Shown here: positions 2,469 through 27,538 of the stretch, piece after piece
Numbering within the stretch: the first letter of the stretch is position 1
Layout: the number at the start of each line of letters is the position of its first letter
From: Escherichia phage UPEC01
Sequence record: MW233709
Strand: one strand, 5' to 3'
DNA: 64,000 bases
Notes under the pieces: model-generated
What the model was told of the DNA's origin: nothing
The model's input: the letters and a program-made list of their open reading frames with translations, nothing else
Database searches by the model: none
Position numbers and translations under genes: made by a program

Positions 2469-5183
2469 ATGCAAGAATTTTATTTAACTATCGAACAAAT
2501 CGGTGACAACCTACTCGAACGATATATTGACAAGAATGGTCATGAACGTGTTCGTGAAATCCCTTATGCTCCATGCTTGTTTATGCACGCCCGCGAAGAC
2601 CAAGCTGCAAAGTATACAGACATCTATAATAAAGGTTGTGTGAAAAAAGAATTCGATTCCATGCGTGATGCATCCCAGTGGATGAAGCGAATGAATGACA
2701 TGGGTCTCGAAGCTATGGGTATGGACGACTTTAAACTCGCATACTTGTCCGACCGTTACCCACACGAAATCAAATATGATTCAAGTAAAATCCGTGTTGC
2801 TAACTTCGATATCGAGGTGACATCTCCTGATGGGTTCCCTGAACCGTCTGAAGCACGTCACCCTATTGACGCCCTGACGCACTATGATTCGGTAGACGAT
2901 AAATTCTATGTCTTTGACCTTTTGGGCTCACCATACGCCACTGTGGAGCAATGGTCTATTGATATTGCTGCTAAGCTGCAGGAAGACGGTGGTGATGAAG
3001 TCCCGGAAGAAATCCTGGAAAAAATTGTTTATATGGCTTTCGATTCAGAAGAAGAAATGCTCCAGCAGTATTTGGTATTCTGGAACGAGAAAACTCCGGT
3101 TATGTTAACTGGTTGGAACATCGAGAAGTTTGATATTCCATATATCTACAACCGCCTTAAAAATGTATTTGGTGAAGCTACAGCAAAACGTCTGAGCCCA
3201 CATCGTCGTACAAAAGTTAAGGTCATTAACAACGGCTTTGGCGAAGAACAAGAAATCATTCAGATTCTGGGTATCTCTGTTCTGGATTATCTGGACCTGT
3301 ATAAAAAGTTCAGCTTCACAAACCAACCGTCTTATTCGTTGGATTATGTTGCGGAATCTGAACTGGGTGTTGGTAAACTCCCGTATGATGGCCCGATTTC
3401 TAAACTGCGCGAATCAAATCACCAGCGGTATATTTCTTATAACATCATCGACGTTTATCGTGTTGTGCAGATTGACCGTAAGCGACAGTTTATTAACCTG
3501 AGTCAGTCAATGGGTTATTACGCAAAAATGCAGATTCAGTCTGTATTCAGCCCAATCAAAACTTGGGATGCGATTATCTTTAACAGCTTGAAGACTCAAA
3601 ACAAAGTTATTCCGGAAACCAAATCGCATGTTCGCCAATCGTTCCCTGGTGCATTTGTTAAGGAACCTATTCCGAACGCATACAAATATGTAATGAGCTG
3701 TGACTTAACATCTCTGTATCCGAGCATCATCCGACAGATTAACATCAGTCCAGAAACGATTGCCGGGTCATTTGCGCCAGCCCAGATGTATGAATACATC
3801 GCAGGAACTGCTGACCGTCCATCTGATACATTTAGTTGTGCTCCAAATGGTATGATGTATTTTAAAGATGTTGCGGGTATTATTCCGACAGAAGTCACCA
3901 AGGTGTTTAATCAGCGTAAAGAGCACAAAGGCTATATGCTTGCGGCTCAACGTAATGGTGAACTGATTAAGGAAGCTCTGCGTAATCCAGGAACTGGCAC
4001 AACCGAACCAGAAGTTGATTATCGTCATGACTTTGATGACAATATGAAAACGACCCTGCATGGTCTGAATCAAACAGTCCTAAATGGTATGCTGTACAAA
4101 GCGCAGATGGAAGAAGTTGCAGGCATGACCGCACAGATTAACCGTAAACTGCTTATCAACAGTTGTTATGGCGCTCTGGGTAATATCTGGTTCCGTTACT
4201 TTGACCTGCGAAATGCAACCGCGATTACATCTTTCGGACAACTTGCACTGCAGTGGATTGAGCGTAAAGTTAACGAATACTTCGATAGTGTTTGTGGTAC
4301 AAGCGGTGAAACTTATGTGTTCTATGGCGATACTGACTCCATTTATATCCAGTGCGATAACCTGATTAAAAAGGTTGGTGGCGAATCTAAATTCCGCGAT
4401 ACAAACCACCTGGTTGACTTCATGGACAAGTTTGCGAAAGACCGTCTGGAACCGGCAATCGATAAAGCTTTCCGTGAGCTGGCTGAATACATGAACAACA
4501 AACAGCACCTTATGTTTATGGACCGTGAGGCGATTGCATGTCCTCCGCTGGGTTCGAAGGGTGTGGGTGGATTCTGGACGGCGAAGAAGCGTTATGCGTT
4601 GAACGTGTACGATATGGAAGGCACACGTTATGCTGTTCCAAAATTGAAAATCATGGGTCTGGAAACTCAAAAGTCGAGTACTCCAAAGGCATGTCAGAAA
4701 GCTCTGAAAGAATGCATCCGCCGTATGCTGCAAGAAGGTGAAGAATCTCTGCAGACATACTTCAAGGAATTCAATAAGGAATTTAATGAGCTTAACTACA
4801 TGACCATCGCAGGGGTATCATCGGTTAACAACATCCAGAAATATAATGAAGGTGGTTTCCCTGGATTTAAGTGCCCGGCTCATATCAAAGGTGTGCTTGC
4901 ATATATGCGTGCAACTAAAGGTCTGAAGACTGTTCCGCAAATCATGGAAGGGGAAAAGGTGTATGTACTTCCTCTTAAAGTCGGCAACCCATTTGGTGAA
5001 ACCGTGATTGCATGGCCATCAGGGATTGAACTCCCGATTGAAATTCGTGACCAAGTCTTGCAGTGGATGGACTACAACACACTGTTCCAGAAGACTTTTG
5101 TCAAACCGTTAACAGGTTTCTCTGAAGCTGCAAAGGTTGATTACGAAAAGAAAGCAACTCTTTTTGATATGTTTGACTTTTAA
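2469..5183 (+). CDS. 43: DNA polymerase gp43 (family B)
   Basis: 904 aa; exonuclease and polymerase motifs incl. YGDTDS, KKRYA, SLYPSII. Confidence 0.97.
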   Translation: MQEFYLTIEQIGDNLLERYIDKNGHERVREIPYAPCLFMHAREDQAAKYTDIYNKGCVKKEFDSMRDASQWMKRMNDMGLEAMGMDDFKLAYLSDRYPHEIKYDSSKIRVANFDIEVTSPDGFPEPSEARHPIDALTHYDSVDDKFYVFDLLGSPYATVEQWSIDIAAKLQEDGGDEVPEEILEKIVYMAFDSEEEMLQQYLVFWNEKTPVMLTGWNIEKFDIPYIYNRLKNVFGEATAKRLSPHRRTKVKVINNGFGEEQEIIQILGISVLDYLDLYKKFSFTNQPSYSLDYVAESELGVGKLPYDGPISKLRESNHQRYISYNIIDVYRVVQIDRKRQFINLSQSMGYYAKMQIQSVFSPIKTWDAIIFNSLKTQNKVIPETKSHVRQSFPGAFVKEPIPNAYKYVMSCDLTSLYPSIIRQINISPETIAGSFAPAQMYEYIAGTADRPSDTFSCAPNGMMYFKDVAGIIPTEVTKVFNQRKEHKGYMLAAQRNGELIKEALRNPGTGTTEPEVDYRHDFDDNMKTTLHGLNQTVLNGMLYKAQMEEVAGMTAQINRKLLINSCYGALGNIWFRYFDLRNATAITSFGQLALQWIERKVNEYFDSVCGTSGETYVFYGDTDSIYIQCDNLIKKVGGESKFRDTNHLVDFMDKFAKDRLEPAIDKAFRELAEYMNNKQHLMFMDREAIACPPLGSKGVGGFWTAKKRYALNVYDMEGTRYAVPKLKIMGLETQKSSTPKACQKALKECIRRMLQEGEESLQTYFKEFNKEFNELNYMTIAGVSSVNNIQKYNEGGFPGFKCPAHIKGVLAYMRATKGLKTVPQIMEGEKVYVLPLKVGNPFGETVIAWPSGIELPIEIRDQVLQWMDYNTLFQKTFVKPLTGFSEAAKVDYEKKATLFDMFDF

Positions 5184-19282: not shown

Positions 19283-19579
19283 ATGTACTACGCATATGTG
19301 CTGGTTCACAAAGATAAAGATGGTTTTGAACGCCCATTGGAGTATGATGGAAAGGTTACCTTATACACCACAAAACCGGGCGCAGAGTATGAACTTGCCA
19401 ACTATTTATATACTACAAACCGCTATTTACGCATGGGACGTATTGAAACACGGTATACTCCCAGAAAATGGTGGTTTGATAAGCGGGAAACAAAAACTGT
19501 TTTTCCTACTGAAGAACACGCACGAGAATTGAAATTAGTTTTAGATACTTTATATGTTAAGCGAGTAAAATTGGCATGA
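19283..19579 (+). CDS. hypothetical protein (98 aa; dda.1 position)
   Basis: ATG 19283; track start 19280 is GTG. Confidence 0.45.
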   Translation: MYYAYVLVHKDKDGFERPLEYDGKVTLYTTKPGAEYELANYLYTTNRYLRMGRIETRYTPRKWWFDKRETKTVFPTEEHARELKLVLDTLYVKRVKLA

Positions 19580-20904
19580 TTAAATTTGAAGACTTGAACA
19601 CAGGACAAAAAGAAGCTTTTGATTATATCACTGAAGCTATTCAGCGACGTTCAGGGGAATGTATCACTCTGAATGGTCCAGCTGGTACAGGTAAGACCAC
19701 TCTGACAAAATTTGTCATTGACCATCTAGTGCGTAATGGAGTTATGGGAATTGTGCTTGCTGCGCCAACTCACCAGGCGAAAAAAGTTTTATCTAAATTG
19801 TCTGGTCAAACCGCGAATACAATCCATAGTATCCTGAAGATTAACCCGACCACATATGAAGACCAAAACGTTTTTGAACAACGCGAAATGCCTGACATGT
19901 CAAAATGCAATGTTCTGGTTTGTGATGAAGCAAGTATGTATGACGGGTCTCTGTTTAAGATTATTCTTAACTCTGTTCCTGAATGGTGTACTATTCTTGG
20001 GATTGGTGATATGCACCAGCTGCAGCCAGTTGACCCAGGAAGCACACAACAAAAGATAAGCCCATTCTTTACGCATCCTAAGTTCAAACAGATTCATCTG
20101 ACTGAGGTCATGCGAAGCAATGCTCCTATCATTGAAGTGGCGACAGAAATTCGTAATGGTGGTTGGTTCCGTGACTGTATGTATGATGGTCATGGTGTAC
20201 AGGGTTTCACCTCACAAACCGCTTTAAAGGATTTCATGATAAACTATTTCAGTATTGTAAAAGATGCTGATATGTTGATGGAAAACAGGATGTATGCGTA
20301 CACGAATAAATCAGTTGAAAAACTGAACAATATTATTCGTCGCAAGCTCTATGAAACGGATAAAGCATTTTTACCGTATGAAGTCCTGGTTATGCAAGAG
20401 CCACACATGAAAGAGCTGGAATTTGAAGGCAAGAAATTCAGCGAAACCATTTTTAATAATGGTCAGTTGGTTCGCATCAAGGATTGCAAATACACTTCCA
20501 CAATTCTCCGTTGTAAAGGTGAATCGCACCAGTTAGTGATTAATTACTGGGACCTGGAAGTTGAGTCAATTGATGAAGATGAAGAATATCAGGTTGACCG
20601 CATCAAAGTTTTACCAGAAGACCAGCAACCGAAATTCCAGGCATATCTGGCTAAAGTTGCTGACACATACAAACAGATGAAAGCCGCTGGTAAACGTCCA
20701 GAGTGGAAAGACTTCTGGAAAGCTCGCCGGACCTTCTTGAAAGTTCGGGCTCTTCCGGTCAGTACAATCCACAAGGCCCAGGGCGTTTCAGTAGACAAAG
20801 CATTCATCTATACCCCATGCATCCATATGGCCGAAGCTTCATTAGCGAGCCAGTTGGCTTATGTTGGAATCACACGAGCGAGGTACGACGCATATTATGT
20901 ATAA
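19576..20904 (+). CDS. dda: Dda DNA helicase (SF1)
   Basis: 442 aa; NGPAGTGKTT Walker A, strong similarity to T4 Dda throughout. Confidence 0.95.
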   Translation: MIKFEDLNTGQKEAFDYITEAIQRRSGECITLNGPAGTGKTTLTKFVIDHLVRNGVMGIVLAAPTHQAKKVLSKLSGQTANTIHSILKINPTTYEDQNVFEQREMPDMSKCNVLVCDEASMYDGSLFKIILNSVPEWCTILGIGDMHQLQPVDPGSTQQKISPFFTHPKFKQIHLTEVMRSNAPIIEVATEIRNGGWFRDCMYDGHGVQGFTSQTALKDFMINYFSIVKDADMLMENRMYAYTNKSVEKLNNIIRRKLYETDKAFLPYEVLVMQEPHMKELEFEGKKFSETIFNNGQLVRIKDCKYTSTILRCKGESHQLVINYWDLEVESIDEDEEYQVDRIKVLPEDQQPKFQAYLAKVADTYKQMKAAGKRPEWKDFWKARRTFLKVRALPVSTIHKAQGVSVDKAFIYTPCIHMAEASLASQLAYVGITRARYDAYYV

Positions 20905-21142
20905 AGTACATAAAGAAGATTTAGATAATCTTATCTACGGTATTCAGGACGCGGTTGAATTTTTCGAAGATAATTCGACTATCGTCGTGCAGGGTAATTA
21001 CGTTTTACTGGAACTGAATCTTATTCGGAAACGTATGGCCGCGATTGAATATTTTAACAATGAAGAGCCAGGGATTTTTATCTCTGATTATGTTGCTGGT
21101 GAAATTCAGAAATTAAAAGAGATGTGCGATGGTTGCTGGTGA
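20897..21142 (+). CDS. hypothetical protein (81 aa); C-terminus altered by 40-bp tandem duplication
   Basis: Start ATG 20897 overlapping dda stop; alternative start 20861. Confidence 0.4.
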   Translation: MYKVHKEDLDNLIYGIQDAVEFFEDNSTIVVQGNYVLLELNLIRKRMAAIEYFNNEEPGIFISDYVAGEIQKLKEMCDGCW

Positions 21143-21172
21143 AATTCAGAAATTAAAAGAGATGTGTGATGA
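21093..21172 (+). repeat. 40-bp tandem duplication (2 copies, 1 mismatch)
   Basis: gttgctggtgaaattcagaaattaaaagagatgtg(c/t)gatg x2 at the ORF 20897 / dexA junction. Confidence 0.9.
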
Positions 21173-21852
21173 TTGATGCTATTATTGACTTTGAAACTCT
21201 GGGAAACGGCTCGAAGGGAGCCGTTATTGACCTGGCGCTGATTACATTCGAATCTGACCCTGCTATTGTGGAATCGTTCGAAACCCTGGTTAATCGCGGC
21301 AAACGCATTAAGTTTAGTCTCGAATACCAAAAAGGAAAACGTCTGTTTGATACAACAACCATGGGTTGGTGGAAAAAGCAATCAGCAGAAGCTCGTGTTA
21401 ACCTGACTCCTTCTGCACATGATGTTGATACTCTGACCGGTATCCAACAGGCGATTGACTATCTGAATGGTAATGGAATTAACAAATACGAAAGCCTTAT
21501 GTGGTGCCGTGGGATGTCTTTTGACTTCCCGTTGTTTGTTGACCTTATCCGCGACCTACAGCGCAATGAGGGGATTCCTGAGCGTGAATTGAATACCTAT
21601 AACCTGGAGCCGGTTGTATTCTGGAACCAGCGAGATATCAGGACAGCCATCGAAGCCTTGTCACTCGTCCGTAAGATGTGTGAAACCCCATTACCGAAAG
21701 GGACTTTAGATGGATTTGTGGCGCACGATTCGGTACATGACTGCGCGAAAGATATTTTGATGTTGAAGTATGCCCAGCGCTATGCTCTTGGTTTAGATGA
21801 AGTTCCTTCCGAAGAAGATGCAGACCCATTATCTTTGCCGAAAAAACGATAA
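21169..21852 (+). CDS. dexA: exonuclease A (DexA)
   Basis: 227 aa; IIDFETLG DEDD-type exonuclease start, size and position as T4 dexA. Confidence 0.8.
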   Translation: MIDAIIDFETLGNGSKGAVIDLALITFESDPAIVESFETLVNRGKRIKFSLEYQKGKRLFDTTTMGWWKKQSAEARVNLTPSAHDVDTLTGIQQAIDYLNGNGINKYESLMWCRGMSFDFPLFVDLIRDLQRNEGIPERELNTYNLEPVVFWNQRDIRTAIEALSLVRKMCETPLPKGTLDGFVAHDSVHDCAKDILMLKYAQRYALGLDEVPSEEDADPLSLPKKR

Positions 21853-21858
21853 AAAGTA

Positions 21859-21888
21859 GTGTACAAGGCCAATGGAAAGAGACATAAT
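21859..21888 (+). promoter_or_regulatory. early-type promoter
   Basis: AAAAAGTAGTGTACAA-N16-CATAAT then leader CATCAACTACTGATGAGGATAACAAAATG. Confidence 0.5.
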
Positions 21889-21919
21889 CATCTCATCAAC
21901 TACTGATGAGGATAACAAA

Positions 21920-22177
21920 ATGATTACTTCTTTTGAAATTGGCCAACAATATGAAATGTCCGCTCTTCAAGCTGCTGAAGCAGGTCTGACTAAAGCGTTT
22001 GAATGTGCATTTGCAAATATTCGTGGTAAAATCTTTACTGTCAATAAAATTGCGGTATATGATAAAGAAACTGATATGAACAAAGGCATCTACCTGAACG
22101 TGTCAAATGCAAAAGGTCGTCGTGAAATTATGGTTGTACAACCTAATCAACTGGCGATGTTCAATAAGGTTGCATAA
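21920..22177 (+). CDS. hypothetical protein (85 aa)
   Basis: Start ATG 21920 after conserved leader; track start 21872 lies inside the promoter/leader. Confidence 0.5.
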   Translation: MITSFEIGQQYEMSALQAAEAGLTKAFECAFANIRGKIFTVNKIAVYDKETDMNKGIYLNVSNAKGRREIMVVQPNQLAMFNKVA

Positions 22178-27088: not shown

Positions 27089-27112
27089 AAAAGGACCTTC
27101 GGGTCCTTTTTT
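27089..27112 (+). terminator. intrinsic terminator hairpin
   Basis: aaaaggaccttcgggtcctttttt. Confidence 0.65.
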
Positions 27113-27288
27113 ATTATGTACAAGCCATAAAAATTGCGTTAAGATGTCCTTGAGGTGAAAATATGATTATGTCTGACGGAAGTTTAGTTAATCTACATTT
27201 TTTATTATGTACAAGCCATAAAAATTGCGTTAAGATGTCCTTGAGGTGAAAATATGATTATGTCTGACGGAAGTTTAGTTAATCTACA
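27107..27288 (+). repeat. perfect 91-bp tandem duplication (2 copies) covering promoter, RBS and first 12 codons
   Basis: 27107-27197 identical to 27198-27288. Confidence 0.95.
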
Positions 27289-27538
27289 GAATGTTGCTCG
27301 TTGTATTATGGAAGCAGGCCTGAGGAAGGTGCAGGAGCTCCCAGATAGCGACAGGAAGCGAAGTTACTTGTTGGCTGTAAGAGCATCAGCCATGAGCATT
27401 AAGGCTGGCCAGAAGGTTCCTGAGGAGCGAATTGAAGCACTCCTTGCATTGATATACCATGGCCAAGAACATAAAGCTACCATGCGTAGTATGAGAAAAA
27501 TATTACAGGAGATTGGAAATGACGAACTTCAAAGTTAA
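27254..27538 (+). CDS. hypothetical protein (94 aa)
   Basis: Starts in second copy of the 91-bp duplication; first copy gives a truncated 28-aa ORF (27163-27249). Confidence 0.5.
   Translation: MIMSDGSLVNLQNVARCIMEAGLRKVQELPDSDRKRSYLLAVRASAMSIKAGQKVPEERIEALLALIYHGQEHKATMRSMRKILQEIGNDELQS

Follow-up and report, generated by a model that had tools for sequence, protein, structure and literature searches.

Two head-to-tail copies of a 40-bp unit lie across the junction between a DexA.2-like gene and dexA in Escherichia phage UPEC01 (MW233709), and this two-copy state is a segregating polymorphism with a frequency of roughly one third in the sequenced genus Gaprivervirus. We consider it likely that the duplication had a single origin, is neutral or nearly neutral, has been shuffled among haplotypes by recombination and has occasionally collapsed to one copy. 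The window denotes the whole 64,000-nt stretch of UPEC01 DNA that was analysed, and coordinates are those of its plus strand. The features of the locus are collected in Table 1.

Table 1. Features of the dda to dexA locus in the window.
Feature	Position	Strand	Description
dda helicase gene	19576..20904	+	first gene in the run of 8-nt overlaps
DexA.2-like ORF, 81 aa	20897..21142	+	phrog_5263, PF26837, position after dda
Copy 1, GTTGCTGGTGAAATTCAGAAATTAAAAGAGATGTGCGATG	21092..21131	+	wholly within the DexA.2-like ORF; ends ..TGCGATG; ancestral T9, G18, C36
New junction GATG/GTTG	21128..21135	+	between 21131 and 21132; blunt, microhomology-free
Putative mini-ORF, 15 codons, MVAGEIQKLKEMCDD and stop	21129..21176	+	copy-1 image of the dexA ATG as start
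Copy 2, T36 (21167)	21132..21171	+	ends ..TGTGATG; holds the upstream ORF stop, the working dexA Shine-Dalgarno and the dexA ATG
New spacer, 26 nt	21143..21168	+	upstream stop to dexA ATG; 8-nt overlap in single-copy phages
dexA Shine-Dalgarno-like AAGAGA	21157..21162	+	in copy 2, 6 nt before the ATG; copy-1 duplicate at 21117-21122
dexA, exonuclease A, 227 aa	21169..21852	+	PF16473, phrog_255

Genes of the locus

The window comes from a T4-like phage of the genus Gaprivervirus (SP18/VR7 group), and the nearest genome in the phage collection is that of DK-13, with 95.1% identity over 22 kb. The dexA product matches PF16473 of Pfam at 3e-16 and phrog_255 (exonuclease) at 1e-74, and the same gene is annotated as dexA in the relatives. 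The ORF upstream of it matches phrog_5263 (E=8e-32), and a precomputed match to PF26837 (Phage_T4_Y00H_G) exists for its protein and those of the relatives; a search of the protein against a local Pfam copy gave no match. Aligned with T4 DexA.2, the DexA.2-like protein shows 34% identity, with the DYVxGEI motif and a terminal acidic residue in common. The small ORF at 20897-21142 is the orthologue of T4 DexA.2. A homolog search with the 81-aa protein returned only four clusters, all Gaprivervirus-like and all ending in DD, and the terminal acidic residue (..DD or ..ND) is conserved from Gaprivervirus to T4 in the single-copy proteins.

The gene order in T4 is dda, dexA.2, dexA.1, dexA, and in Gaprivervirus the T4 gene dexA.1 is missing from between the DexA.2-like gene and dexA. 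The early-gene run of dda, the DexA.2-like gene and dexA is joined by 8-nt start/stop overlaps, the last of these links being that of the single-copy phages. The start of the DexA.2-like ORF overlaps the dda stop at 20897-20904 (ATGTATAA), and dexA.2 and dexA.1 of T4 likewise overlap by 8 nt (L031 2644-2651).

On the 3' side of dexA, the start of the next ORF (21872-22177) is disputed, and the annotations of the relatives give either a 101-aa product (ATG 21872) or an 85-aa product (ATG 21920). The latter start has a much better Shine-Dalgarno match (-6.1 kcal/mol, compared to -3.0 kcal/mol for ATG 21872).

A 40-bp tandem duplication beyond chance

The duplicated unit occupies 21092-21171 as GTTGCTGGTGAAATTCAGAAATTAAAAGAGATGTG(C/T)GATG, with no spacer between its copies, and the sole difference between them lies at position 36 of the unit, where 21127 has C and 21167 has T. 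Tandem Repeats Finder reports a period of 40, 2.1 copies, 95% matches, no indels and a score of 154 at 21092-21175. A pattern search finds exactly two adjacent matches, and none of 100 dinucleotide-preserving shuffles contains a match. These results confirm that the tandem duplication is real, and they agree with the first-pass annotation, made from the letters of the window, which had described two copies with one mismatch. The sequence string quoted there is also correct, while the coordinates given for it, 21093-21172, are shifted rightward by one base relative to the sole phase with a single mismatch.

Distribution among Gaprivervirus phages

A megablast search with positions 20850-21400 as the query matched 33 records, which represent 27 distinct phages, all Gaprivervirus-like. 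The matches span 551 nt (two copies) in 10 records from 9 phages and 511 nt (one copy) in the other 23 records, and the junction was read directly in 24 retrieved loci. Two copies are thus found in 9 of the 27 distinct GenBank genomes (TH22, TH55, UPEC07, ECML-359, TH41, MN01, VR20, TH54, and TH57), and one copy in the other 18; the countries of origin recorded for the two-copy phages are the USA, Uganda, Lithuania, and Bangladesh. Looking up the exact 81-aa product brought in another two contigs with two copies, from assemblies of the public runs ERR11172839 and DRR831849. The window, the nine GenBank phages and the two run contigs are referred to below as the 12 two-copy sequences. More carriers were sought in IMG/VR and the JGI metagenomes; the viral scans yielded only VR20, VR25, and VR26 again, and the metagenome scan gave one contig, which is single-copy and carries T36. 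The two-copy state, whose conservation among homologs had been named in the first-pass annotation as the observation that would speak against its reading, is therefore shared with other phages (9 of 27 genomes and two contigs) but not conserved.

One of the matching records differs from the rest in another respect. The record of Escherichia phage DCP80 (PQ671644.1) has only 140,978 bp, and its annotation passes from the ORF after dexA directly to 'terminase large subunit' and 'tail sheath protein', with rIIA upstream of srd. This gene order is unlike that of all other Gaprivervirus records and suggests that the record is misassembled or rearranged.

A sequencing or assembly artefact, or a recent mutation private to UPEC01, could also place two copies in a single record. 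None of the analyses speaks for this explanation, although the window does hold a second tandem duplication that is private to this phage, described below. The 40-bp allele occurs in nine other distinct genomes in GenBank, which come from different laboratories, and in two sequencing runs that were assembled independently, and its copies are already one or two substitutions apart. The sharing of the allele refutes both an artefact and a private origin and makes the read-level verification proposed in the first-pass annotation unnecessary; we regard this explanation as extremely improbable.

The second duplication is a perfect (100%) 91-bp tandem repeat at 27107-27288 (Tandem Repeats Finder score 364). 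Its unit starts in the T-tail of a terminator hairpin (27089-27110) and holds a promoter-like stretch, the Shine-Dalgarno sequence GAGGTG and the beginning of a 94-aa ORF (27254-27538), namely its ATG and initial ~13 codons. Because the first copy carries the start and ~13 codons, it gives rise to a truncated 28-aa ORF (27163-27249). The unit is single in all 33 Gaprivervirus records, including that of TH41, whose sequence is 100% identical apart from the repeat. This second repeat either arose very recently or is an artefact of the assembly.

Ancestral state and origin of the junction

In single-copy phages the upstream ORF reads ...GAG ATG TGC GAT GAT TGA and ends in EMCDD, and it overlaps dexA by 8 nt (ATGATTGA). 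The annotation of DK-13 gives the same arrangement, with the ORF at 3048-3287 and dexA at 3280-3963. VR7, VR25, VR26, and TH40, which form the deepest clade in the trees of both flanks, have one copy; beyond the genus, DNA similarity is limited to dexA, and no orthologous junction is found further out. Because the deepest clade is single-copy, one copy is the ancestral state; in keeping with this, dexA.2 of T4 also follows dda and shares an 8-nt overlap with its next gene. The single-copy ancestor implied by the first-pass annotation is supported in this way, including its EMCDD end, while the ATGA-type overlap assigned to it there is not: the single-copy overlap is of the 8-nt ATGATTGA type (-8) and not of the 4-nt type.

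The 12 two-copy sequences all have one and the same junction between the copies, ...GCGATG/GTTGCTGG.... Copy 1 is preceded by T, whereas the unit ends in G, and copy 2 is followed by A, whereas the unit begins with G. These mismatches leave zero microhomology and define a unique phase for the junction. The sole microhomology available is the ATG shared by 21090-21092 and the dexA start, and slippage there would give an in-frame repeat of 39 bp. Such a 39-bp allele was found in none of the 12 carriers and in none of the single-copy genomes. A two-step route, in which 39-bp in-frame slippage is followed by insertion of one G, is not favoured, as neither the carriers nor the single-copy genomes hold the 39-bp allele. 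From these comparisons we infer that the duplication arose once, because the repeated appearance of an identical blunt junction is improbable. It is the identical junction that argues for a single origin; no shared haplotype is linked to the two-copy alleles.

Recombination around the duplication

Neighbour-joining trees were built from 1.5 kb of the left flank and 0.7 kb of the right flank, and one- and two-copy phages are interleaved in both. EAWsc9, with one copy, is the same as the two-copy phages TH22, UPEC07, and TH55 at all 131 variable sites scored, 420 bp on each side, and the flanks of the window are closest to those of the single-copy phages DK-13 and TH44. No SNP exclusive to the two-copy alleles was found in the flanks. 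The closest positions that do not fit a single tree are 21088 to the left and 21246 to the right, and under a single origin the left crossover for the window must lie in a stretch of about 43 bp (21089-21131).

By the four-gamete test, at least 34 recombination events have taken place over 840 bp in the 25 sequences compared, about one per 25 bp, and at this density the movement of an 80-bp segment between haplotypes is expected. More generally, recombination or homoplasy is extremely dense among the Gaprivervirus phages in the region compared (window 20673-21585 and the aligned loci). The locus is a natural illustration of how recombination in T4-like phages wipes out linkage around a variant down to tens of bases.

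Substitutions within the copies serve as further markers. In ERR11172839 and the nine GenBank carriers, copy 1 is ancestral and does not differ from the allele that the outgroup clade has in single copy. Copy 2 carries T36 in the window and VR20, and A18 in the other eight GenBank two-copy phages and both run contigs; in DRR831849, copy 1 differs as well, with C9. Each of these variants also exists as a single-copy allele on the nearest haplotypes: T36 in the metagenome contig and in DK-13, the sister of the window in the left flank; A18 in M719-6WT.2, the sister of TH22; and C9 in SP18, P479, and RZ. Recombination between the copies (collapse) or exchange with single-copy alleles would produce this pattern, with either direction possible for any one event.

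The same observations can be read as repeated origin at a mutational hotspot, with separate events at least on the window/DK-13-like, VR20-like, and TH22-like haplotypes. Two-copy alleles do sit on at least three flanking haplotypes, with no shared linked SNP down to 4 bp leftward, and the copy-distinguishing variants are found as single-copy alleles (T36 in DK-13, A18 in M719-6WT.2, C9 in SP18, RZ, and P479), so that unequal exchange between two differing single-copy alleles could create each type. However, the same blunt junction is present in 12 of 12 sequences with no microhomology to direct it, and the product that slippage would favour (39 bp via the ATG) is never seen. In addition, no two-copy allele has identical copies, as fresh duplications would show, and recombination at a density of at least one event per ~25 bp of alignment suffices for the spread over haplotypes. 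Repeated origin is thus decidedly unlikely, and a single origin followed by recombination is the reading that we carry forward.

The altered C-terminus and gene spacing

The unit length of 40 is no multiple of 3, and the upstream ORF therefore changes frame at the junction. With two copies it ends GAT GGT TGC TGG TGA, giving ...EMCDGCW and 81 aa instead of ...EMCDD and 79 aa. Only the last residue is replaced, the terminal Asp giving way to Gly-Cys-Trp. This shift had been described correctly in the first-pass annotation, as had the 26-nt distance between the upstream stop (21140-21142) and the dexA ATG at 21169. For annotation, the 81-aa and 79-aa forms now listed as 'hypothetical protein' are alleles of one DexA.2-like gene.

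The start/stop overlap of the DexA.2-like gene and dexA, present in the single-copy relatives, is absent from the window. The dexA coding sequence is untouched, and an exact image of its upstream 37 nt is retained. The duplication is thus a natural illustration of how one out-of-frame duplication at a junction can part overlapping genes with neither damaged and with the downstream ribosome site kept.

With -2.9 kcal/mol against the 16S rRNA tail, the Shine-Dalgarno sequence of dexA is a weak one and belongs to the weakest in a tested set of nine neighbouring starts; coupling to the upstream ORF may therefore matter for dexA. To compare the accessibility of this site, opening energies were calculated from the partition function for dexA positions -14 to +3 in 27 natural alleles and their in-silico converted counterparts. 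Opening the ribosome site costs 5.8 kcal/mol on average in the one-copy state and 6.0 kcal/mol in the two-copy state, and in this model the predicted accessibility is unchanged by the duplication. In the minimum-energy folds the upstream AUCUCU (21080-21085) pairs with AGAGAU of copy 1 and leaves copy 2 open; release of the dexA Shine-Dalgarno from a hairpin by the duplication was nevertheless rejected, because the ensemble opening energies are alike in both states. A scan of 20500-21900 found no promoter- or terminator-like site created by the repeat above shuffle expectation.

A mini-ORF that may relay coupling

In E. coli, reinitiation falls by 40-80% at a distance of +14 nt and is nearly abolished at +38 nt, and overlaps of -8 are among the three coupled classes that are common (PMC10666635). 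By analogy with these distances, the two-copy state should greatly weaken direct termination-reinitiation between the upstream ORF and dexA.

The duplicated start site has, however, left behind a putative mini-ORF, which the first-pass annotation does not mention. Its ATG at 21129 is preceded by the duplicated AAGAGA and lies 11 nt upstream of the DexA.2-like stop codon, and it reads copy 2 in the original upstream frame. Its stop codon (21174-21176) falls inside the original ATGATTGA, so that it overlaps the dexA ATG by 8 nt. A relay from the upstream ORF through the mini-ORF to dexA is geometrically possible, and coupling may be relayed rather than lost. The loss of the overlap claimed in the first-pass annotation stands, while the loss of coupling also claimed there is unproven because of this putative relay. 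The locus illustrates in this respect how, after duplication of a start site, a mini-ORF is left through which coupling could be maintained.

The mini-ORF is intact in all 12 two-copy sequences, solely through the way in which the duplication was built. Both copy-2 substitutions are synonymous in its frame, which may reflect either the build of the duplication or import from single-copy alleles.

Selection and the preferred explanation

Alternatively, the two-copy allele might be kept by selection because it uncouples synthesis of DexA from that of DexA.2, because the mini-ORF retunes that synthesis, or because the GCW tail alters DexA.2. Its frequency of about one third on four continents could also reflect selection, and the allele is old enough for its copies to have diverged and persists despite the chance to collapse. 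The terminal acidic residue that it replaces is conserved from Gaprivervirus to T4 in single-copy proteins, and, with so weak a dexA Shine-Dalgarno, DexA output should depend on coupling geometry; losing direct coupling could thus have more effect than a neutral account assumes. The synonymous nature of both copy-2 substitutions in the mini-ORF frame points the same way, but two such changes are not significant and may have come in from single-copy alleles, in which they are under the constraint of the real ORF. Further points weigh against selection: the ribosome site is predicted to be equally accessible with one copy and with two, close one- and two-copy phages coexist on the same haplotype, as expected under neutrality, and T4 dexA is dispensable in the laboratory. 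Efficient recombination in T4 is reported to need about 50 bp (Singer et al. 1982), and the 40-bp repeat falls below this length, so its persistence needs no selection. Taken together, we find maintenance by selection unlikely.

The most specific form of this idea is that the two-copy allele is a regulatory variant held as a balanced polymorphism, in which the 26-nt spacer and the 15-codon relay ORF reset the amount of DexA made per DexA.2. We give it the same low standing and treat it as a doubtful candidate. If true, it would be a natural case of an overlap resolved by duplicating it, with coupling preserved through a leader peptide.

The explanation that we prefer, a single and probably neutral duplication, would run as follows. 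The ancestor would have had one copy and the 8-nt ATGATTGA overlap between the DexA.2-like gene and dexA. One illegitimate, microhomology-free event would have duplicated a segment made up of the 35 nt of the upstream ORF that run up to the overlap and the first 5 nt of the overlap itself, so that the dexA ATG and the dexA ribosome site were included. Homologous recombination, frequent in T4-like phages, would then have moved the allele onto several flanking haplotypes, and the allele probably collapsed to one copy several times. Direct coupling by termination-reinitiation from the DexA.2-like ORF to dexA would be weakened, and the mini-ORF formed from the duplicated ribosome site and ATG would restore an 8-nt stop/start overlap and may relay ribosomes. 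The net effect on fitness would be small, leaving a neutral or nearly neutral polymorphism, although neutrality is assumed in this account. The duplication probably has little effect, and the finding matters little on its own, as it concerns a short indel polymorphism beside a gene that is dispensable in T4.

Comparison with known systems

A search of the literature on Gaprivervirus, and on tandem duplication together with gene overlap or coupling, found no description of the two-copy allele. The duplication is nevertheless an ordinary kind of variation. It resembles the short tandem-duplication (indel) polymorphisms of T4-like phages in being head-to-tail and without a spacer, in varying in presence among close relatives, in having copies one or two substitutions apart and in having a distribution scrambled by homologous recombination. 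Unlike those indels, it coincides exactly with a gene junction and takes in a start codon with its ribosome site, and for this reason one event alters a C-terminus, removes an overlap and creates a mini-ORF.

Compared to T4 DexA.2 and DexA, the genes of the window keep the same order after dda, and the DexA.2-like protein shares DYVxGEI and the terminal acidic residue of its T4 counterpart; unlike T4 DexA.2, the protein of the window ends in GCW instead of D, and dexA.1 is absent from Gaprivervirus. The single-copy DexA.2-like/dexA pair and the dda/DexA.2-like pair have the same geometry as the coupled -8 pairs described by Huber et al. (2019, 2023; PMC6728339, PMC10666635). In contrast to such pairs, the full-length upstream ORF and dexA are 26 nt apart in the window, where only the putative mini-ORF keeps the -8 geometry.
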